Positions 27,395-37,021 of a stretch of DNA of 40,115 nt are shown piece after piece. A program made the translations under genes and the position numbers. Within the stretch, counting starts at the first letter, position 1; each line of letters starts with the position of its first letter. The notes below the pieces were generated by a model. The model worked only from the letters and a program-made list of their open reading frames with translations, searched no databases and was not told the origin of the DNA. The DNA is from a virus: IMG/VR virus record IMGVR_UViG_3300029478_000007; one strand, 5' to 3'.

Positions 27395-27703
27395 ATGGAC
27401 TATACACAGATCATCTCGGCAGTGATCGCGCTCATCAGCGCGCTCGTTTCGGCATTTTTGATCCCGTGGCTCAAAACAAAGATCGACGCGGACAAGCTGC
27501 AAACGCTCCGCACTTACGTTGAAATCGGCGTAAAAGCGGCGGAACAGCTCTACGCGGCAACGGACGGCGAGGAAAAGAAAGCCTATGTGATCAATTTTCT
27601 GGCCGAACACGGAATCCGGTTCGACGTATCTACAATCGATCAGCTGATCGAGGCCGCCGTGCTGCAGCTGCACCACGAGTTGTACGGGAGTGAGCGGGCA
27701 TGA
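27395..27703 (+). CDS. Holin, LL-H-like
   Basis: The N-terminal TM IISAVIALISALVSAFLIPWL and the helical tail resemble the LL-H holin family. The gene precedes the endolysin. Confidence 0.65.
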   Translation: MDYTQIISAVIALISALVSAFLIPWLKTKIDADKLQTLRTYVEIGVKAAEQLYAATDGEEKKAYVINFLAEHGIRFDVSTIDQLIEAAVLQLHHELYGSERA

Positions 27704-28410
27704 GCATCAAGATCGGGCAGGCCAGTCTCGGCGAGACGGGCGGCCGCAATCAGCAGCCCGGCAACCAGAATGGGCGGGAGCTGAATATCTCCAACTGGTA
27801 CAACGGCCGCTGGCTCGGCGTCCTGCGCTACAAGAGCCGCAAAAAGGCCGAGCGGGCCGCGCAGACGTGCGAGGCAGCAATTAAAAACCGGAATATCGGT
27901 TACGACATGGACGGCCGGAACACGGCATACGAGGCCGCCAGAGCCGTCAGGTGGGACGTGAGCAGGATCGCAAAGCCTGTGGAGACGGACTGCTCCGCGC
28001 TCATGATGCTCTGCGCCGTGGCCGCAGGCTGCGCGTCGGTCGAAGCGCTCTACAAAAAGCAGGGCAATAGCTGCACAACATACTGCATGCTGCACGATTG
28101 GCCAGCAACGGGAGATTTTGTGCTGCTGACCGGCAGCAAGTATCTGACGACGGACGCCAATCTCCTGCGCGGCGACGTACTGGTAAGCGAGGGCCATACG
28201 GTCATGGCACTCGAAGATGGAAAAAATGCAGAGGAGGAAACCGAAATGGTAGAAAAAAGCAAGATCATCGTGGACGGCAAGGAAGTCGCCGTTGAACGCA
28301 TCCTGAAAGACGGAACGAACTACGTCAAGGTGCGCGATCTGGCCGCAGCGCTGGATCTCGAAGTGAGCAACAAGGGCAATATCGCTGTGCTGAATCACAA
28401 GGAAAAGTAA
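27700..28410 (+). CDS. Endolysin: Cys-His cell-wall hydrolase domain plus a C-terminal Cu-amine-oxidase-N1-like wall-binding domain
   Basis: IGYDMDGRNT...ETDCSALMM...GDVLVSEGHTVMAL suggests a Cys/His hydrolase. The C-terminus is IIVDGKEVAVERILKDGTNYVKVRDLAAALDLEV. Confidence 0.75.
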   Translation: MSIKIGQASLGETGGRNQQPGNQNGRELNISNWYNGRWLGVLRYKSRKKAERAAQTCEAAIKNRNIGYDMDGRNTAYEAARAVRWDVSRIAKPVETDCSALMMLCAVAAGCASVEALYKKQGNSCTTYCMLHDWPATGDFVLLTGSKYLTTDANLLRGDVLVSEGHTVMALEDGKNAEEETEMVEKSKIIVDGKEVAVERILKDGTNYVKVRDLAAALDLEVSNKGNIAVLNHKEK

Positions 28411-28423
28411 GGAGGCGGGGCCT

Positions 28424-28672
28424 ATGTCGCCGCAGGCGCGGGCCAAGCTGCCGCCGGAGCTGGGCCGCCTGACCCGCAAGGACATGGAGGCCGTGATCTA
28501 TCAGGCCAATCTTGGCCGGGAGAATGAGAAGATCGCGCACCTTTACTTCGTGGACAAGCTCCCGCAAGTGGACGTTGCAACAGAATTGTATCTTGGCCGC
28601 GCCACGGTACAGCGACGCCTGCCGGAGATCATGGCGCGGATGAAGGCTGCGTCCGGCAGTCTTCCAAACTGA
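28424..28672 (+). CDS. Small sigma-70 region-4-like HTH protein
   Basis: LPQVDVATELYLGRATVQRRLPEIMARM. It is the first gene of the post-lysis cargo block. Confidence 0.55.
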   Translation: MSPQARAKLPPELGRLTRKDMEAVIYQANLGRENEKIAHLYFVDKLPQVDVATELYLGRATVQRRLPEIMARMKAASGSLPN

Positions 28673-28722
28673 GCGGAAATGATGCACAAGTGATACGCAG
28701 CTGAGGCACATCAAAACGCAAA

Positions 28723-28767
28723 AAAGCCCATACTGGACACATCAAAGGAGTGTTCGGTATGGGCTTT
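28723..28767 (+). promoter_or_regulatory. 11-bp stem hairpin enclosing the SD and start codon of the next gene, followed by TTTTCTT
   Basis: aaagcccatac (28723-28733) pairs with gtatgggcttt (28757-28767). The loop contains AAAGGAG, and the ATG at 28759 lies in the 3' arm. Confidence 0.5.
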
Positions 28768-29142
28768 TCTTATTTCAATCCAAATCCCGCTGGGCAGAAG
28801 GTCGGGGACTGCACCGTCCGGGCTATCGCAAAGGCGACCGGGAAGAGCTGGGACGAGGTGTATATCGGCCTGTGCCTGCAGGGGCTCATTATGGGCGATC
28901 TGCCGAGCGCGAACAGTGTATGGGGGGCGTATCTCCGGCAGCAGGGCTTTACCCGGAACGTAATCCCGAACACGTGCCCGGACTGCTATACCGTCGCGGA
29001 TTTCTGCGCAGATCATCCGCGCAGCGTGTATGTGCTGGCGTTATCAAGCCACGTTGTGTGCGTGGAGGATGGGACGTATTTTGACACGTGGGATTCTGGG
29101 AGTGAAATTCCACTGTTTTATTGGGCAAAGGAGGAAGCATGA
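28759..29142 (+). CDS. Putative papain-fold Cys hydrolase (C...H...D order), function unknown
   Basis: Candidate residues are GDCTVRAI (Cys), SSHVVCV (His) and DTWDS (Asp). The ATG at 28759 follows AAAGGAG. Confidence 0.45.
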   Translation: MGFSYFNPNPAGQKVGDCTVRAIAKATGKSWDEVYIGLCLQGLIMGDLPSANSVWGAYLRQQGFTRNVIPNTCPDCYTVADFCADHPRSVYVLALSSHVVCVEDGTYFDTWDSGSEIPLFYWAKEEA

Positions 29143-29612
29143 TGTTTGGACAACAGCCGTATGTGTATCAGCAGCCGATTTACAATCAGTCGCCCATGCC
29201 GCAGATGCAGGAGCCGCAGATGCAGATGCGTCCGCAGTATCAGCCCGCGCCGCAGATGCCGACTTATCAGCCGCAGCCACAGCAGCCGCAAAACCAGTCG
29301 ATCATCTGGATCCCGAACGAGCAGGCGGCAAACGACTTTATTGTCGCGCCCAACAACGCAGTAACGCTTTGGGATATGAACGCGCCGGTCGTGTATGTGA
29401 AAAAGGCCGATGCAAGCGGAAAGCCGAGCATGACAACGTATGATCTTGTGGAGCGCGCACAGACCGTTATAACGCCCACAGCGGCCCGAAGGGACATGAG
29501 CGAGGAATATGTGACCCGCAAGGAGTTCGACGAGCTTGTAGCCAAGCTGACGGCTCCCAGCGTAAGACCGACGCGCAAGACAAAGGAGGCAGACAATGAA
29601 CCCACTGTTTAA
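29139..29612 (+). CDS. Q/P-rich N-terminus protein with a conserved-looking beta domain (IIWIPNEQAANDFIVAPNNAVTLWD...VYVKKADASGKP)
   Basis: The ATG at 29139 overlaps the upstream stop (ATGA) and follows AAAGGAGGA. Confidence 0.6.
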   Translation: MMFGQQPYVYQQPIYNQSPMPQMQEPQMQMRPQYQPAPQMPTYQPQPQQPQNQSIIWIPNEQAANDFIVAPNNAVTLWDMNAPVVYVKKADASGKPSMTTYDLVERAQTVITPTAARRDMSEEYVTRKEFDELVAKLTAPSVRPTRKTKEADNEPTV

Positions 29613-29811
29613 TGCTCTGGGCGGCGGGCAAATGCCCGGCCAGATCGGCCAGTTTCAGCAGCTGGTGCAGCAGTTCCGGCAATTCCAGAGCGCATTTAAG
29701 GGGAATCCGAAAGCAGAGGTTGAAAAGCTTGTGCAGTCGGGCCAGATATCGCAGCAGCAGTTAAATCAGCTGCAACAGGTGGCAAGCCAGTTTCAGCAGC
29801 TTCTTGGATAA
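29596..29811 (+). CDS. Small Q-rich helical protein (71 aa)
   Basis: ORF with a GGAGG SD. Q-rich heptad-like sequence. Confidence 0.55.
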   Translation: MNPLFNALGGGQMPGQIGQFQQLVQQFRQFQSAFKGNPKAEVEKLVQSGQISQQQLNQLQQVASQFQQLLG

Positions 29812-29824
29812 CTTAGATTTCAAT

Positions 29825-29836
29825 TCGTGCGCACGA
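29825..29836. promoter_or_regulatory. Perfect 12-bp palindrome TCGTGCGCACGA upstream of 29874 (candidate operator)
   Basis: Read directly. It lies within the spacer of a possible promoter (TTCAAT-17-ATAAAT). Confidence 0.4.
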
Positions 29837-29873
29837 TTGAGATAAATTTCAAAATCTACGAAAGGAGAAAACT

Positions 29874-30695
29874 ATGAGTTTGAATGGCGATGGTATTCCT
29901 ATGAACATGCCTGTTGTTCCGGCTGGCACGAACAACGGTAATGGATGGGGAGGCTTTGGCGGCGATAACGGCTGGTGGATTATTCTGTTCTTCATTGTTC
30001 TGATGGGGTGGAATCGGAACGGTTGGGGCGGCAATAATGGCAGCGGCGCTGCGGACAACTATGTTCTTGCAAGTGACTTTGCTACGCTTCAGAGGCAGAT
30101 TGACAGCGCGGCGTCCACACTCGAGCGTAAGGGCGAAATTACCCAGCAGGGGCTTTGCGACGGATTTTACGCAATGAACACTACGTTGCTGAACGGTTTC
30201 GCCGGTGTCAATCAGAACATGAACACTGGCTTCCAGTCCGCCGAGCTTTCCCGTTGCAATCAGCAGGCGGCGCTCATGCAGCAGCTTAACGCGATGCAGA
30301 TGCAGGCGGCGAACTGCTGCTGCGAAAACCGCGCTTCAATCGCCCAGGTGCGCTACGACATGGCGACGCAGGCATGCGACACCCGCAACACCGTGCAGAA
30401 CACCACGCGCGACATCATCGACGCGATGAACTGCGGCTTCCGCAGCATCGACCAGCGTCTGACGGCGCAGGAGCTTGCGGCGAAGGACGCGAAGATCGCC
30501 GAGCAGAACCAGCAGCTCTTTGTTGCGCAGCTTGCGGCAAGCCAGAACGCTCAGACGCTCGATCTGCGTAACTATGTGAGCGGGCAGTTGGCATATTACA
30601 ACCCGCGCCCTGTTCCGGCATTCAGCGTTCCGGCCCCGTACCAGTACGCAGGATGCAACAGCGGTTACAACTACGGCTGCGGCAACTGCGCGTAA
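29874..30695 (+). CDS. Membrane protein: G/W/N-rich N-terminus plus TM (YjcZ-like look), Q/N/A-rich coiled coil, Cys clusters
   Basis: NGNGWGGFGGDNGWWIILFFIVLMGWNRNGWGGNNG, then CCCENR, QACDTRN and MNCGFRS, and a C-terminal AGCNSGYNYGCGNCA. Confidence 0.65.
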   Translation: MSLNGDGIPMNMPVVPAGTNNGNGWGGFGGDNGWWIILFFIVLMGWNRNGWGGNNGSGAADNYVLASDFATLQRQIDSAASTLERKGEITQQGLCDGFYAMNTTLLNGFAGVNQNMNTGFQSAELSRCNQQAALMQQLNAMQMQAANCCCENRASIAQVRYDMATQACDTRNTVQNTTRDIIDAMNCGFRSIDQRLTAQELAAKDAKIAEQNQQLFVAQLAASQNAQTLDLRNYVSGQLAYYNPRPVPAFSVPAPYQYAGCNSGYNYGCGNCA

Positions 30696-30769
30696 CAACT
30701 CCACATCGTAGAGCTTTTTCGTGGCCTCACGAAAATGGTCGGCCCCCATTGCCGATACTCGATAGCAAC

Positions 30770-30804
30770 GCGGCGGGGCAATCGTCCCGCCGCTGTATTT
30801 TTTA
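30770..30804 (+). terminator. Rho-independent terminator (GCGGCGGG / CCCGCCGC stem, then TGTATTTTTT)
   Basis: The stem is 30770-30777 / 30786-30793, and the T-run extends to 30804. Confidence 0.75.
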
Positions 30805-30820
30805 TGAAAGGAATGATTTT

Positions 30821-31045
30821 ATGGCAACATATAAGGAACTCAAGAAGAAATTCATCGATCACCTGATGGGCGTGGATCTGTACAAGATGAACATCACGGA
30901 TCTCTATACATACGCCTGTATCCTGAAAACGGTGGACGAAATGGAGCAGCCGAGCTGCGCAGAGGCGATGAAGACGGCGATGGAGCCGATTTTGAACTAC
31001 TGCAAAGCAGGCAATTCGGGAAGCGGGGTGTTTGGGATTGGCTGA
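30821..31045 (+). CDS. Small protein (74 aa) ending GNSGSGVFGIG
   Basis: The ATG at 30821 follows GAAAGGAATG. The ORF-track start at 30653 was rejected because it spans the terminator. Confidence 0.5.
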   Translation: MATYKELKKKFIDHLMGVDLYKMNITDLYTYACILKTVDEMEQPSCAEAMKTAMEPILNYCKAGNSGSGVFGIG

Positions 31046-31460
31046 GTTTACAAATTCCAACGTCGTCGGCGTCGCCGCCGGGCAGAACGTCCCTCTGATC
31101 TCCACGGCAGCTTGCGGAAAGCCGTGCATCGTACATCGCGAAGGAAGCGGGCTCGTTACGCTGCGCGGGCTTACGCAGCAATGCAAGGCGAAGTTCCGCG
31201 TATCCTTTGGCGCGAATATCGCCGTACCTACAGGCGGAACAGTAGGTGCCATTACCGCTGCGCTCGCAATCAACGGCGAACCTCTGAGCAGCGCCACAGC
31301 GACCGTAACCTCTGCGGCTGTTGAGAACTATTTCAACATCTTCGTTTCCACATTCGTGGAAGTCCCGCGTGGCTGCTGCCTGACTGTAGCGGCGAAGAAC
31401 ACCAGCGCGCAGGCAGTAAGTTTCGCAAATAGCAATATGATCGTCGAGCGCGTATCGTGA
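31032..31460 (+). CDS. Stand-alone jelly-roll protein resembling the BclA C-terminal (TNF/C1q-like) domain
   Basis: Beta-rich pattern ...VTLRG...KFRVSFGANIAVPTGG...ALAINGEPL...FVEVPRGCCLTVAAKNTS...NMIVERVS, recognised by eye. TTG start at 31032 or 31038. Confidence 0.5.
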   Translation: MGLAEFTNSNVVGVAAGQNVPLISTAACGKPCIVHREGSGLVTLRGLTQQCKAKFRVSFGANIAVPTGGTVGAITAALAINGEPLSSATATVTSAAVENYFNIFVSTFVEVPRGCCLTVAAKNTSAQAVSFANSNMIVERVS

Positions 31461-31474
31461 AAGGAGGATGCAAT

Positions 31475-31846
31475 ATGTACGATTTGAGAAACCTGCGTGA
31501 AATGCTCTGCAAAGAGCTGGACGAAATCGCCGACAAGCGCGAAATGTCTGCGGGCGATCTGGACGCGATCCAGAAGCTGACAAGCTCCATCAAGAATACC
31601 TACAAGATCGAGACGGCTGAAGACGGCGGCTATTCCCGCGACGGCGAGTGGGAAGCGGATATGCGCGGCACATATGGACGCGGAAGTTCATACCGTGGGC
31701 GCCGCCGCGACGCAATGGGCCGCTACAGCCGCACAGACGCCCGCGAGCATATGCATGCGCAGCTGGAGGATATGATGCGCGACGCGGACGACGATAAAAC
31801 CCGTGACGCGATCCGCCGCTGCATGGAGCAGATCGAGCGGGCATAA
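31475..31846 (+). CDS. Hypothetical charged protein (123 aa, R/D/G-rich centre)
   Basis: The ATG at 31475 follows AAGGAGG (31461-31467). Confidence 0.6.
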   Translation: MYDLRNLREMLCKELDEIADKREMSAGDLDAIQKLTSSIKNTYKIETAEDGGYSRDGEWEADMRGTYGRGSSYRGRRRDAMGRYSRTDAREHMHAQLEDMMRDADDDKTRDAIRRCMEQIERA

Positions 31847-31858
31847 GGAGAGCGCAAT

Positions 31859-32206
31859 ATGTTGGATGCAGCCGAAATCCGGAAAGAGATTGCTCGCCTG
31901 GAATATGAGGAATCCGACTATAAGAATTACGCTAAGCTTGCGGATCTGTATGTGATCCGCAAGCAGATGCAGGAAGAGGAACGGGGCGACGGCGGTAGGT
32001 ATGTGGGTTACTACTCCGGCGCTCCCGCCCCTGTGACCGCAGAACCGGCTACCGTGGGCGAGTACGGGGACAGTGAGTTTTTGCTTGCAGTAGCTGGGAA
32101 AGACCCGGCGAAGGCTTGGGCGGTCGTTGATGAACTTATGGACACATTATCGCTTGTGAACCGAAAAGTCTATGATTCTATGCTTCGGAAAATAAAGTCC
32201 ATGTAG
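31859..32206 (+). CDS. Hypothetical protein (115 aa)
   Basis: The ATG at 31859 follows AAGGAG. It is the last + strand gene before attP. Confidence 0.6.
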   Translation: MLDAAEIRKEIARLEYEESDYKNYAKLADLYVIRKQMQEEERGDGGRYVGYYSGAPAPVTAEPATVGEYGDSEFLLAVAGKDPAKAWAVVDELMDTLSLVNRKVYDSMLRKIKSM

Positions 32207-32348: not shown

Positions 32349-32391
32349 AAAAAAGTACCGACTTTAGATTTAAAACATCTAAAATCGGTAC
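32349..32391 (-). terminator. Terminator hairpin (14/15 bp) plus T6 immediately downstream of the tRNA 3' end on the minus strand
   Basis: gtaccgactttagat (32355-32369) pairs with atctaaaatcggtac (32377-32391). An A6 run at 32349-32354 gives the U-tract on the minus strand. Confidence 0.7.
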
Positions 32392-32393
32392 TT

Positions 32394-32458
32394 TGGCGCG
32401 GAAGGAGAGATTTGAACTCTCGCGCGCTTTTTAGACGCCTACTCCCTTAGCAGGGGAG
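32394..32458 (-). other. attP core: 3' part of a tRNA-Ser(GCU) gene (anticodon arm, long variable arm, T-arm, acceptor 3' strand, CCA); the 5' half is absent
   Basis: The minus strand reads CTCCC-CTGCTAA-GGGAG ... GAGAG-TTCAAAT-CTCTC-CTTCCGC-G-CCA. No GCGGAAG acceptor 5' strand or D-arm lies upstream. Confidence 0.75.
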
Positions 32459-32520: not shown

Positions 32521-33624
32521 TCACTCTGTCGAGTCGTTTTGTAACTGATTTACGGCATTGACCATGCCTTTCATGTCCGGGTGTACATACCGTTGGGTAG
32601 TCGTTATCTTCGTGTGGCGCATGATTTCCTTGATCATAAACGGGTCGATGTTTTTCATTGCGAGGGCTGTAGCGGTTGTATGGCGGCATGAGTAAGGTGG
32701 TAGCTTTTGCACTCCGGCAAGCTCCAAACACTCATAATATCTCTTGTAAAAATTATCTTTGTTTATGCAGCAGATATTTCCGACGCGCGATTTGCTTTCT
32801 TCGCATAGTTCATGCAGCACTGGCGCAACGAAATCCGGGAATACCATAGGCGTTTCCTTCCGCTTCTTTGTCTTTATGCCGCCTCGGACGATCTCATTTT
32901 TCTCAAAGTCAATCATGTCCTTTTTGAGCTTCAGAAGCTCACCAGGCATCATGCCGGTATAGATCATCGTAAGGATAAACCCGACAAAGTGATCTTTTGC
33001 ATACGCTTCCCATAGCTTTTTTACGTCGGCGTCGGTAAACGGCTCCGGCGACTTCTCTTCCAATTCCGGAAGCTTTATGTACTTTGCAAGATTCACGGTA
33101 GTCTGCTTTTCGGCAATCGCGAGATTGTAGCAATGGGAAAGGACTGTTTTCATGTCCTTCCGCGTGTAATAGGTGCTGGCGTTGCGGTCGATAACATCCT
33201 GTATCTGCGCGATGGTAAGCGCGTCGATCTCACGGTCGGCGATTTCTTTCATGCGCTCGAAAGCCTTTTCTGCCGCTCCCTGACGATCAGCCGATAAGGA
33301 TAGATAATCCCCACGCAGATATGTTTTGTAGTATTCTCTGAGAGTGGGGCTTCGCTGCTCTTCCTTCGGAGGGTTTGCTGCATATTGGAGGGCGGCGCGC
33401 TTTGATGTAAACCCGCCTTTTGTTCGCATCTTTTGCCGAAGCTTGTCGTTCTCGTCTAGGTAAGTTCTTTCTGTCCAACGCGCCGTCCACGTCTTCCCTC
33501 GCTGGTAAGCGCTTCCTTGCCCGTTCCCGCGTGTCCGGCTTCGCCGCGCTTCCTGCTTTTTCCCGCACCAGCAACAGTAGGGCGCGCCGTCTGGAATTTC
33601 TTTTTTACACTTGATGCACTCCAT
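32521..33624 (-). CDS. int: Tyrosine integrase with an N-terminal zinc ribbon
   Basis: CIKCKKEIPDGAPYCCWCG, SCRHTTATALA and MRHTKITTTQRYVH motifs. The ATG at 33624 follows GGAGGG. The ORF-track start at 33654 is possible. Confidence 0.9.
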   Translation of the reverse strand: MECIKCKKEIPDGAPYCCWCGKKQEARRSRTRGNGQGSAYQRGKTWTARWTERTYLDENDKLRQKMRTKGGFTSKRAALQYAANPPKEEQRSPTLREYYKTYLRGDYLSLSADRQGAAEKAFERMKEIADREIDALTIAQIQDVIDRNASTYYTRKDMKTVLSHCYNLAIAEKQTTVNLAKYIKLPELEEKSPEPFTDADVKKLWEAYAKDHFVGFILTMIYTGMMPGELLKLKKDMIDFEKNEIVRGGIKTKKRKETPMVFPDFVAPVLHELCEESKSRVGNICCINKDNFYKRYYECLELAGVQKLPPYSCRHTTATALAMKNIDPFMIKEIMRHTKITTTQRYVHPDMKGMVNAVNQLQNDSTE

Positions 33625-34180
33625 GTTTCCCTCCACGTTCTTTTCGGATCGCATAGAAAGTAATTGCCGAAGCCAGCGCTGAACCTACGATCAGGGCAAT
33701 GCAAACCCATGCAGCTACGGACAAATCTCCATCGCGAATGAGGCCTGCGCTCCGACTCTGCGCATCCGTCACAAGGCAGGCAATCAGAGAAAAGGAGAGC
33801 AGCATACAAAACAGGGCGAGGACGTAACACATTGTATGTGTAGACTTTATCTGCGCGCTTTGCGCGGCCGCTGTTGCCTCCAGTTTGGCGTTTTCAAGCT
33901 CGACATGATGGATCTGCTTGGTCAGCTTTTCCGGGCTTCCGACGGGATTTTCAAGGCCGAACAGCTCGTCGAGTGACAACCCGAGCGTTTTGCATAGCGC
34001 AGCCGAGTTGTAAAGCCGTGGATCCGCTTGTGTTCCAGCGTATAATCGGCTTACGGCAGAGAAGGAAACGCCGGACTCGTTCGACAGCTCCTCCAACGTC
34101 ATCCCGCTTGCATCTTTTGCCCTTCTGATCTTCCCCTGATACGCGCCGATAAACGGAGCGAGATCCTGTATTGCGGACAT
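33605..34180 (-). CDS. Membrane-anchored XRE-family HTH regulator
   Basis: The N-terminal HTH is MTLEELSNESGVSFSAVSRLYAG. A coiled coil follows, then two hydrophobic segments, CYVLALFCMLLSFSLIACLV and AAWVCIALIVGSALASAITFYAI. Confidence 0.75.
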   Translation of the reverse strand: MSAIQDLAPFIGAYQGKIRRAKDASGMTLEELSNESGVSFSAVSRLYAGTQADPRLYNSAALCKTLGLSLDELFGLENPVGSPEKLTKQIHHVELENAKLEATAAAQSAQIKSTHTMCYVLALFCMLLSFSLIACLVTDAQSRSAGLIRDGDLSVAAWVCIALIVGSALASAITFYAIRKERGGKHGVHQV

Positions 34181-35749: not shown

Positions 35750-36163
35750 TCAATCTTTTTCTATCTGCTTCGCAAGATTTAATAGAGCGGATGCAAGCTC
35801 GGGACGATTCATGCAAATCCGAATAATCTGCTGGATATCCTCCGGCAAGTCACGAATAAGCGCTTCGCCATCGGCGGGGCGCTCTTTTTTTATGCCCTTT
35901 TCGCGTTCTTGCTCCAGCAGCCCGCGCACAAGCTCAATGTCGGCCTGCTCCGTCAGAATCTCCTCCGGCGTGGTTTGCAGCATGGCGCACATACGGGCAG
36001 CTTCTTCGGGGGAGGGAAAGTTCTTCGCACGCTTCCATTCCGTAATCCACCCGCGAGATTTTTTCATAACTGTTTCGGAAAAGTATGCTTTGCTCCATCC
36101 TTTCCCCTCTACGAGAGAATTTACTTCTTCAATATTTGGCGTGACAACAAGACGTTTAGACAT
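35750..36163 (-). CDS. HTH (XRE-like) repressor candidate
   Basis: GWSKAYFSETVMKKSRGWITEWKRAKNFPSPEEAARMCAML. Its SD lies inside the last codons of the upstream gene. Confidence 0.65.
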   Translation of the reverse strand: MSKRLVVTPNIEEVNSLVEGKGWSKAYFSETVMKKSRGWITEWKRAKNFPSPEEAARMCAMLQTTPEEILTEQADIELVRGLLEQEREKGIKKERPADGEALIRDLPEDIQQIIRICMNRPELASALLNLAKQIEKD

Positions 36164-36167
36164 TTTG

Positions 36168-36782
36168 CTACCCCTTATATTCGATTAGATATGTACGCCC
36201 ATGCTTAGTGCGCGTTATTGTCCCGTCTTTAGCCATGAAGTACAAAATTGTTGATATGTCGTTTTGAACGACAGGATCAAAGCGTTTATACAAATCCGTT
36301 TGAATAATAGAATGGCTTTCCGAAAGAACGCTCTCAATTTTTGACTTTAAATTGTTGGTTTGTGAAATATATAAAGATTCTTTTGCGGATAATTGGTCTT
36401 TGTTTTTAAGCAACTCTTTTAACTCGCATTCAAAGCGATCAACATAACAAAAATCTGCATCTTTTGAATTGTGAGCGTGTTCCCACATCTCAGAAAAATA
36501 AGTTTGGTATTCTGGACCAAGAGAATAGCATTTCGATTTAAGACTGTAAAATGCATCAATAAGCTTTTGCAATGTTTCAATTCTCTCGTTCAGTAGAAGC
36601 TTTGCATTCAACGAAACGGCGCAATTTGCCATATAACTTTCTATTGGACGGATTTCTTTTTCAATCATCATGTATTGCTCTAACATATCCGATTGGCTTT
36701 TGCTGGGGCTGTTTATGGTGGGGCGCTTGTCTTTGGATGAAGCTTGGCGCATGACGCTTTTTTGCTTTTTTAGAAACCACAT
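36168..36782 (-). CDS. Low-GC hypothetical protein (204 aa from the ATG at 36782; 225 aa if 36845) with a C-terminal winged-helix-like segment
   Basis: The ATG at 36782 follows GAGG. Composition is clearly AT-rich relative to the rest of the genome. Confidence 0.65.
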   Translation of the reverse strand: MWFLKKQKSVMRQASSKDKRPTINSPSKSQSDMLEQYMMIEKEIRPIESYMANCAVSLNAKLLLNERIETLQKLIDAFYSLKSKCYSLGPEYQTYFSEMWEHAHNSKDADFCYVDRFECELKELLKNKDQLSAKESLYISQTNNLKSKIESVLSESHSIIQTDLYKRFDPVVQNDISTILYFMAKDGTITRTKHGRTYLIEYKG

Positions 36783-36859
36783 AAAAACCTCACAAAAAAA
36801 GTCAATCCAATTTGTACAACATTTCATCGTAAGTATTGTTGACATACGACATAACGTTG

Positions 36860-36888
36860 TATATAATATGCTTACAGAGCTTAATCAA
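36860..36888 (-). promoter_or_regulatory. Minus-strand promoter TTGATT-17-TATATA in front of the low-GC gene
   Basis: The -35 is the reverse complement of 36883-36888 and the -10 is the reverse complement of 36860-36865. Confidence 0.5.
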
Positions 36889-37021
36889 GGCAACAAAAAA
36901 CCAAGCCCCATCCGAATCTTCGTTTTGCGGGCGTATGGACAATATTTTGTTGGCTGACACTTACATAATAACGGCTATACATGGTTTTGTCAAGATAAAG
37001 CTCTTAATTTGGCTGCGGCGT

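Follow-up and report, generated by a model that had tools for sequence, protein, structure and literature searches.

A nine-gene block between the endolysin gene and attP

Sequence analysis of the IMG/VR virus record IMGVR_UViG_3300029478_000007, whose whole 40,115-nt stretch is here called the window, identified a block of nine plus-strand open reading frames (ORFs; here named g1 to g9) with Shine-Dalgarno (SD) sequences at positions 28424 to 32206, between the stop codon of the endolysin gene (28410) and the phage attachment site attP. The window is the complete genome of a temperate siphovirus in its circular (attP) form. Its virion genes encode a terminase, portal, scaffold, major head protein, connectors, major tail protein, tape measure, distal tail proteins, and tail fibers, and they are followed by lysis genes for two holin-like proteins and an ELLD-family endolysin (27700 to 28410; Pfam PF25309, E = 3e-58). 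Stop and start codons overlap at g2/g3 (ATGA), g3/g4, g6/g7, and g7/g8, which suggests translational coupling. An initial annotation of this DNA had proposed that the block is a self-contained, undescribed module, that it represents cargo in the classical lysogenic-conversion slot, and that it serves to decorate or remodel the envelope of the host or the surface of its spores. The nine ORFs and the helix-turn-helix (HTH), hairpin, palindrome, terminator, jelly roll, and attP that it listed were all found at or within a few bases of the positions it gave. The features of the locus are as follows.

28424 to 28672, plus strand: g1, 82-aa HTH protein, sigma-70 region-4-like, starting 13 nt after the endolysin stop
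28680 to 28710, plus strand: three direct repeats TGAkrCrCA at 28680, 28691, and 28702, exactly 11 nt apart
28722 to 28768, plus strand: stem-loop of ~21 bp over the g2 start (-31 kcal/mol, z = -8.7), followed by a U-rich tract
28750/28759 to 29142, plus strand: g2, 127 aa, minimal papain-like Cys-His-Asp protein (phrog_3754; AlphaFold2 model)
29139 to 29612, plus strand: g3, Y/P/Q-rich N terminus, small beta domain, helix, and K/E-rich tail (phrog_21718), its start overlapping the g2 stop
29596 to 29811, plus strand: g4, 71-aa Q-rich helical hairpin with a conserved F-x-G-D/N-P-K loop (phrog_22984; sequence comparison)
29820 to 29841, unstranded: dyad symmetry element with the core TCGTGCGCACGA at 29825 to 29836, ~35 nt upstream of the g5 start
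29874 to 30695, plus strand: g5, 273 aa, signature protein of the module (phrog_16490; profile and homologue alignment)
30695 to 30805, plus strand: three-hairpin RNA leader ending in an intrinsic terminator (30770 to 30803), immediately 5' of g6/g7
30821 to 31045, plus strand: g6, 74-aa helical peptide, an occasional insert
31032/31038 to 31460, plus strand: g7, TNF/C1q-type jelly roll of 140 to 142 aa (phrog_20016), likely start TTG at 31038
31457/31475 to 31846, plus strand: g8, helical N- and C-terminal segments around a Y/S/R/G/D low-complexity stretch (weak phrog_28802; alignment)
31859 to 32206, plus strand: g9, 115-aa helical acidic protein (tblastn and hidden Markov model [HMM])
32352 to 32394, unstranded: closing terminator, 18 bp, bidirectional (-19.2 kcal/mol, z = -8.1)
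32394 to 32458, minus strand: attP core, the 3' 65 nt of tRNA-Ser(GCU); identity with the right prophage junction ends at 32458

Conservation and synteny of the gene set

A tblastn comparison over 83 viral loci detected g2, g3, and g5 in every locus (83/83), g7 in 78, g8 in 76, g4 in 68, and g9 in 58, and the gene order g2-g3-g4-g5-g7-g8-g9 was fixed throughout. Seven of the nine ORFs therefore belong to conserved syntenic protein families, which is beyond chance, and the homologues are not scattered singly. The neighboring genes are poorly kept: the lysin of the window was found in 22/83 loci, its holins in 13 to 14, and its integrase in 33/83. At many loci, the module proteins are 60 to 95% identical while tape measure, Dit, Tal, and fiber proteins have no detectable similarity. 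Because the module proteins are 70 to 98% identical where the tail fiber is only 30 to 70% identical, the module appears to be under strong purifying selection.

Relatives of g5 occur on at least 600 viral contigs and in 7,889 protein clusters. In reference genomes, g5 was found at 80 loci, down to 28% identity, mostly on prophage-sized contigs assigned to Oscillospiraceae, Lachnospiraceae, other Clostridia, and gut Bacilli; records labeled Bacteroidales or Prevotella are taken to be misbinned phage contigs. The genes also stay together in relatives of ~40% identity, where the order is g3, a g4-like gene, g5, g7, a gene for a g8-like helical protein, and g2. This gene neighborhood argues strongly that the core of g2, g3, g4, g5, and g7, together with g8 and g9, acts as one functional system. 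The boundaries drawn in the initial annotation need adjustment, in that g6 is present in only 13/83 loci and thus is not part of the core, and g1 is separable (see below); the remaining core holds. At one locus, that of Dulem virus 33, an annotated endonuclease gene is inserted between g4 and g5 (L002, 6969 to 7520, minus strand).

The module in phages without an annotated integrase

In Butyrivibrio virus Ceridwen, all eight families are found downstream of the endolysin gene, in the order g1, g2, g3, g4, g5, g7, an insert, g8, and g9, the last being recognized by HMM (E = 2.6e-36). A tblastn search with g5 for cultured phages returned metagenomic records only, and Ceridwen was reached via g2 and g7. 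No integrase or excisionase is annotated in its genome, and for this cultured phage only lytic growth has been seen, in vitro (PMC7372960). The insert between g7 and g8 is a 264-aa ORF (L173, 24928 to 25722, plus strand) that reads as HNH-like from its sequence.

Dulem virus 36 has a circular genome of 53.8 kb with its own polymerase/primase, RecA, exonuclease, and ligase, and all but a few small ORFs lie on one strand. Here, the module begins right after the receptor-binding protein gene, with g3, a g4-like gene, g5, and a gene for a Cys-rich beta protein, and the holin and lysin genes lie 16 kb away from it. Over the first 50 kb of the 53.8 kb (93%), the annotation shows no integrase. In bajarodcaudo virus 5, the order is holin, lysin, a transmembrane protein, a 78-aa Sigma70_r4 HTH protein, g3, a g4-like gene, and g5, followed by reverse-strand replication genes, and no integrase is annotated within the flank read. 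The positions in these three genomes show that the constant place of the module is the last unit of the late gene block and not the neighborhood of attP.

Morons are small, patchily distributed, and swapped between close relatives. Like the morons bor and lom of lambda or the toxin and sak/scn/chp genes of Streptococcus and Staphylococcus prophages, the module of temperate members lies between lysis genes and attP, has promoter-like DNA and terminators at its flanks, and lacks homology to core phage genes. It differs in being an ordered set of seven to eight genes that is shared by hundreds of mosaic phages, including ones with no annotated integrase and a cultured phage for which only lytic growth has been seen. 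The view of the block as cargo in a lysogenic-conversion slot was thus not borne out, since the module is better conserved than the flanking fiber, lysis, and integrase genes and is found in genomes with no annotated integrase.

g1 and the control DNA upstream of g2

The HTH of g1 is present as initially annotated, but its likeness to sigma region 4 is only weak. Pfam Sigma70_r4 matches with an E value of 0.02, below the cut-off (14.8 versus 24.1 bits), TIGR02937 with 0.002, and a PHROG sigma factor family with 0.006, and KORA and ECF sigma models match as well; g1 of the window stays under every curated cut-off in Pfam and NCBIfam. Its positional counterpart in bajarodcaudo virus 5 (L171) scores 26.7 bits against Sigma70_r4, above that threshold, and also matches DUF1492. 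Because g1 would be translated from the late transcript 13 nt past the endolysin stop, it is the obvious candidate for an activator of the module. It was found in 50/83 viral loci, always upstream of g2. A single ~80-aa HTH protein encoded just upstream of its presumed targets recalls the small sigma-region-4 and GerE/LuxR activators (DUF1492, ArpU/RinA, GerE); it differs from them in lying at the end and not at the start of the late operon, and its binding to the phased repeats or the dyad is a prediction.

The interval between g1 and g2 ranges from 58 to 2263 nt among relatives, so that g1 is separable from the module core. This interval (28673 to 28749 in the window; L001 to L089) is a hot spot of insertion, in which each insert ends in its own terminator, and it looks as if this gap, and not the nine-gene block, is the variable (moron) slot of this phage group. 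In Ceridwen, it consists of a terminator and then a noncoding stretch of ~150 nt. Regardless of what has been inserted after g1, a regulatory block of ~75 nt remains joined to g2.

This block contains the three phased TGAkrCrCA sites, versus four other plus-strand matches in the 40 kb, and 43/89 loci have two or more copies upstream of g2. The repeats may be sites for an activator; they overlap the -35 position of a putative promoter whose possible -10 element, CATACT (28729 to 28734), lies within the 5' arm of the large hairpin over the g2 start. This hairpin had been noted initially as covering the SD sequence and start of g2, and it turned out to be much larger than described: none of 200 shuffled sequences folds as well, and it buries the SD sequence together with both candidate start codons of g2. 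Its 5' arm is kept in close relatives. We propose that it serves as an insulator or terminator against read-through from the lysis operon.

The papain-like protein g2 and its neighbors g3 and g4

In 49 g2 sequences, D17-C18, H98, and D109 are invariant, and a CPDC motif is also conserved. The AlphaFold2 model (predicted local distance difference test [pLDDT] score of 94) has a Cys-bearing helix followed by a beta sheet, that is, an alpha+beta papain-like predicted fold with the catalytic-type order Cys, His, Asp, which bears out the initial guess of a C..H..D hydrolase-like protein. In Foldseek searches against the PDB, Josephin-2 and ataxin-3 were the best matches (E = 0.3 to 0.45; template modeling [TM] score, ~0.5) and Tae4 was also found, all of them nonsignificant. 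In BFVD, the fold is common among uncharacterized phage proteins, and those annotated as C39 or Josephin come lower in the list (E of ~1e-2). Compared with the papain-like clan CA (C39, Josephin, NlpC/P60, Tgl), g2 shares the invariant Cys, His, and Asp in clan order as well as their secondary-structure context; it differs in its length of only 127 aa, its extra CPDC motif, and the lack of a significant PDB or Pfam match.

The g2 family comprises 2,730 representative clusters, mostly of stand-alone proteins of ~125 aa. Variants of the domain (P0417, P0496, P0466, P0458; H57 to H100) include tandem duplicates, one of which has an N-terminal transmembrane helix. Bacillus Tsamsa-like phages, Geobacillus phage GBK2, and Prevotella Lak megaphages have the domain on its own, with no annotation beyond "putative peptidase." In two distant phages, the position of g2 is occupied by a small protein that has an HExxH motif and weakly matches SprT, which hints that a peptidase role is needed.

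Sequence and profile searches found no PDB or Pfam relative of g3, and its diverse homologues share no common Pfam family. Translational coupling of g2 and g3 and the existence of natural g2-g3 fusions (P0466 and P0458) suggest that g3 may be the substrate of g2. Where sequence similarity fades, a g4-sized ORF still fills the g4 slot. A reading of g4 as a bacteriocin-type peptide with a double-glycine leader, processed by a C39-like g2, was rejected, as distant g4 homologues have no N-terminal GG motif.

g5 and the dyad in front of it

The 12-bp palindrome noted initially before g5 was confirmed at 29825 to 29836; TCGTGCGCACGA has only this one exact copy in the window and is followed by an extended -10-like sequence, TTGAGATAAAT. 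Relatives have different perfect palindromes, center included, at the same position (AATCGTGGCCACGATT, AAATGCGGCCGCATTT, AATCTGGCCAGATT, and others), with an extended -10-like TGnTAnAAT motif after the dyad. An RNA hairpin is disfavored here, given the RNA stability (z = -1.1) and the palindromic centers of the relatives. Since the RNA is not unusually stable, a DNA site for a dimeric protein is favored. Single occurrence in the window also led us to reject the dyad and the leader RNA described below as regulon elements used elsewhere in the phage.

The protein g5 begins with a G/N/W-rich region and one short hydrophobic helix (WWIILFFIVLMGW), continues with a long helical region with conserved Cys residues (LCDGFYAMNT, CCCE, DIIDN.NAN.R), and ends in a Pro-rich tail with a terminal GCGC. 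Comparison with PDB sequences and profiles returned only noise of the coiled-coil type, such as ATP synthase b. It is the sole module product with a hydrophobic segment, and no signal peptide was predicted in the other eight. The charge bias corresponds to an N-out/C-in orientation in 30 of 37 homologues, which weakly favors that topology.

The leader RNA, g6, and g7

The internal terminator downstream of g5, part of the initial annotation, was confirmed at 30770 to 30803 and forms the end of a three-hairpin leader. The minimum free energy of the leader is lower than expected (z = -3.05), and RNAalifold showed compensatory changes in 13 of 22 pairs, with 96.5% of cells paired; none of 500 shuffles reached the observed values, and slid controls gave at most 5. 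Conserved unpaired bases lie in two conserved stem-loops directly before the terminator, and frequent G-U pairs indicate a plus-strand RNA. Against Rfam 15, the best overlapping matches had E values above 2, far under gathering scores. A covariance model found one copy in the window and the leader in 21 of 82 genome loci, always just 5' of g7. It stays with g7 even at L120, where g5 lies apart from g7, and at L150, where g7 is on the opposite strand. As it travels with g7 and not with g5, it would be the leader of a g7-to-g9 unit, which counts against a role as 3'-end stabilizer of the g2-to-g5 transcript. We regard it as a candidate attenuator or antitermination element and thus a candidate new cis-regulatory RNA. 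Stem-loops followed by an intrinsic terminator before an operon are shared with leader RNAs such as riboswitches and attenuators, HK022 put, and Bacillus EAR; no alternative antiterminator pairing was identified in the leader.

The peptide g6 has no PHROG or Pfam match. For g7, the TTG at 31038 is the likely start because it gives the N terminus MAEF, as in homologues. AlphaFold2 predicts a ten-strand jelly roll (pLDDT of 82 in the best model), and the initial guess of a BclA C-terminal domain (CTD)/TNF-like fold was supported by Foldseek, whose top match was the F-BclA CTD (9h38; E = 1.6e-7; TM score, 0.75). The BclA CTD (1wck), BxpB/ExsFA, EDA, and 4-1BBL were also found, at E values of 1e-7 to 1e-5. 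The family counts 5,691 clusters, with a named homologue from Gemmiger formicilis, and C32, C51, and C115-C116 are invariant.

The model thus has the same jelly roll as the BclA CTD, F-BclA, and BxpB/ExsFA (1wck, 9h38, 8d02, 7r1m, 9h3d; TM scores, 0.6 to 0.75; E = 1e-7 to 1e-5), and like BxpB/ExsFA, g7 is a stand-alone protein of ~140 aa with neither collagen stalk nor signal peptide. Sequence identity to exosporium TNF-like proteins is only 10 to 16%, and human TNF ligands score almost as well. Further differences from exosporium systems are that the module lacks a collagen-like or ExsY-like gene, a DUF4183 F-ENA subunit, and any Pfam exosporium family, that g7 is phage encoded, and that at least one host is not known to form spores.

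Cys-rich beta proteins of 127 to 148 aa (MACK..C..C, C.C.AQ.IP) that have no Pfam match occupy the g7 slot at L170 (9588 to 9971), L171 (9719 to 10138), L150 (10676 to 11122), and L133 (11099 to 11521). Grouping them with g7 as one family was rejected (hhalign probability, 1%).

g8, g9, and family searches

g8 is 92 to 98% identical among close relatives. The window protein has no Pfam match, and diverse g8 homologues share no family; one distant protein in the g8 slot is a member of Pfam DUF7841. None of the products g2 to g9 matched Pfam, NCBIfam, PADLOC, or PDB sequences, and six module proteins fall into PHROG families, all annotated as "unknown function." A PADLOC scan of the nine proteins gave faint matches only, the best being PD-T4-6 (E = 0.0045). 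The subunit of F-ENA endospore appendages is defined by DUF4183 with an N-terminal hook (PMC12357932). Membership of the module in this or another group of endospore appendages was rejected, as no module protein matched DUF4183 at an E value of 1 or below. Limited literature searching found no paper that describes the module.

The proposal of a self-contained and undescribed module therefore stands, and on stronger grounds than the initial annotation had for it: the block has no recognizable virion, lysis, or replication homology and carries its own regulatory DNA. With the tools used, it fits no known kind of system; no new mechanism is demonstrated.

Flanking regions and integration site

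The integrated form of the phage was found in six metagenome contigs, where cobW, SLH, and SpoIIE genes are host neighbors. ARAGORN placed tRNA-Ser(gct) at L084, 12521 to 12612, on the minus strand. Integration into the 3' end of tRNA-Ser(GCU) restores the tRNA, and the host tRNA-Ser(UGA) lies directly adjacent (L084, 12521 to 12733).

Several further observations concern genes outside the block. The endolysin belongs to a recently defined family (ELLD, PF25309), and its C-terminal ~50 aa have a faint Cu_amine_oxidN1-like match, possibly a wall-binding domain. As read from the translations, the tyrosine integrase (32521 to 33654, minus strand) has an N-terminal CxxC...CxxC zinc-ribbon-like motif (CIKCKKEIPDGAPYCCWCGKK), and the adjacent CI-like XRE HTH protein (33605 to 34180, minus strand) has two hydrophobic helices in its C-terminal half, which suggests a membrane-anchored repressor. 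The G+C content falls to 0.38 at 36001 to 37000, versus ~0.55 elsewhere, over a minus-strand ORF of the lysogeny or early region (36168 to 36845) that may have been acquired recently.

A model for the module and alternative explanations

Our leading explanation, put forward tentatively and with a confidence that falls short of even, is that the block is a conserved, autonomously regulated, g1-dependent module of the late lytic cycle that builds a membrane-tethered protein assembly, in siphoviruses of gut and rumen Firmicutes. Here, g1 would be translated from the late lysis transcript, and the hairpin or terminator over the g2 start would insulate the module from lysis-operon read-through, which would either be terminated or leave the g2 start sequestered. 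Transcription would restart at the module promoter, with the three phased repeats as proposed g1 sites; transcripts from this promoter would lack the 5' arm of the hairpin, leaving g2 translatable, and g2 to g5 would form a very late gene class. The dyad operator may then tune g5, and the terminator-containing three-hairpin leader would gate g7 to g9.

The products, lacking signal peptides, would assemble in the cytoplasm of the infected cell on g5, which would provide a short hydrophobic anchor and a long, helical, Cys-rich stalk. By analogy with ExsF/BxpB, g7 could be a TNF-like trimeric hub that docks the peptide tails of its partners, with g3, g4, g8, and g9 as the low-complexity or helical partners, and the papain-like g2 might cut or cross-link g3. 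The assembly would act at the end of the lytic cycle, either in egress or in the maturation or protection of released material.

Several observations weigh against this model. g1 went undetected in 33/83 loci, where another small ORF precedes g2. The fold of g2 has no significant PDB match (E > 0.1), and its catalysis is only predicted. The hydrophobic helix of g5 is short (~13 residues) and both of its flanks are net negative, which makes membrane insertion and topology uncertain. The jelly roll of g7 was confident in one of five AlphaFold2 models, the other four being poor, and in some distant phages an unrelated Cys-rich beta protein replaces g7. The absence of an annotated integrase refers to the first 50 kb in Dulem virus 36 and to the flank read in bajarodcaudo virus 5. 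The layout of promoter plus terminator is also the classic layout of morons and would fit expression from the prophage. Finally, what the sequences show is the gene families with their linkage and position, the predicted folds of g2 and g7, the cis elements, and the RNA covariation; late timing, g1 dependence, and complex formation are all inferred, as are the substrate of the enzyme and the biological role.

It is also conceivable, but unlikely in our estimate, that the module encodes a virion-associated accessory set, with g7 as a TNF-like knob, g3 and g8 as extended fibers or decoration on the head or tail tip, g2 as a maturation protease, g4 and g9 as chaperones, and g5 as an assembly platform or an ejected membrane-active protein. 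The direct succession to the receptor-binding protein gene in Dulem virus 36 would suit such a set, as would the constant co-orientation with the structural genes, at whose distal end the module lies. TNF-like knobs are found in phage spikes (e.g., phi812, 9eul; E = 8e-6), conservation is as high as in core proteins, and proteins assembled in the cytoplasm are expected to have no signal peptides. The window, however, already has a complete canonical siphovirus gene set, and in most genomes the lysis cassette and the terminator or hairpin part the module from the tail genes. Promoter-like regions and an attenuator of its own would be unusual for structural genes, and PHROG gives no structural annotation to any of the families. 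That the module stays constant while tail and fiber modules are swapped makes it less likely that any one tail protein is its structural partner.

The place directly downstream of the endolysin gene in the window, Ceridwen, L161, and bajarodcaudo virus 5 raises the idea of a lysis accessory that follows holin and endolysin, in which membrane-anchored g5 and its partners would finish the disruption of the envelope or control when lysis occurs in Clostridia with thin walls and S-layers, by a logic analogous to that of spanins or XhlA. The architecture of g5, with its anchor, helices, Cys residues, and Pro-rich tail, is i-spanin-like, and the module is restricted to phages of Clostridia and gut Bacilli. 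We nevertheless consider this quite improbable. In Dulem virus 36, the lysis cassette is 16 kb away and the module still follows the receptor-binding protein gene; the predicted topology leaves g5 mainly on the cytoplasmic side; a set of seven proteins, a putative TNF-like trimer among them, goes far beyond any known lysis accessory; and Pfam and PHROG revealed no sequence similarity to spanin or XhlA families.

Little probability is also left for a lysogenic-conversion module expressed from the prophage, which would decorate or remodel the host envelope or spore surface as a coat- or exosporium-like layer made of BclA/BxpB-like g7, Cys-rich g5, and Q-rich substrates. It would be in keeping with the moron-like layout beside attP, with promoter regions and flanking terminators, with the exosporium proteins F-BclA, BclA, and BxpB/ExsFA as best structural matches of g7, and with SpoIIE and an SLH protein on the host contig. 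The composition of the module, with a small HTH regulator, a papain-fold enzyme, Gln-rich proteins, a BxpB-like fold, and proteins rich in Cys, Tyr, Arg, and Gly, may recall spore-coat and exosporium assembly, but none of its products matched DUF4183, exosporium, or coat families in Pfam. The module is found in genomes with no annotated integrase and in a phage seen only to grow lytically, whose host, Butyrivibrio fibrisolvens, is not known to sporulate, and unlike patchy morons it is more conserved than neighboring modules. Seven of the eight core products have no export signal, and this lack of signal peptides makes export to the envelope of a living lysogen unlikely. Envelope or spore decoration as initially proposed might conceivably come about by assembly in the cytoplasm instead.

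A superinfection-exclusion or anti-defense system at the membrane seems very unlikely. In its favor are the predicted membrane association of g5, whose N-terminal tail would be short and exposed, a place close to the lysogeny region in temperate members, as is usual for exclusion genes, and the one faint PADLOC match (PD-T4-6). That match is not credible, however; genes in an arms race are not expected to show such strong purifying selection or such invariant synteny; and the module sits in the late operon and not in the early or immunity region and is also present in virulent-type genomes. What probability these explanations leave belongs to something else.

Implications for phages of gut Firmicutes

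One further possibility, to which we assign only a very small likelihood, is that these phages make a protein matrix resembling a spore coat, put together inside the host at a late stage of infection. In such a matrix, g1 would be a GerE-like miniregulator, g2 a Tgl-like enzyme cross-linking the Gln-rich g3 and g4, g7 a BxpB-like TNF hub, and g5 and g8 Cys-, Tyr-, and Arg/Gly-rich structural proteins. If true, released virions or virion-bearing membrane remnants would be encased or protected by the matrix during gut passage, and bacterial viruses would possess a counterpart of occlusion bodies.

The most abundant viruses of the human gut include temperate and virulent siphoviruses of Oscillospiraceae, Lachnospiraceae, and other gut Firmicutes. 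In hundreds of such phages, a seven-gene set with three control elements is conserved for which the Pfam, PDB, PADLOC, and literature searches gave no explanation. It supplies seven protein families of no tested function, among them a papain-like fold that is very common in phages, and because Ceridwen forms plaques on a culturable host, the module is directly testable. The module likely stands for a part of the phage life cycle in these hosts that has escaped notice in model phages.

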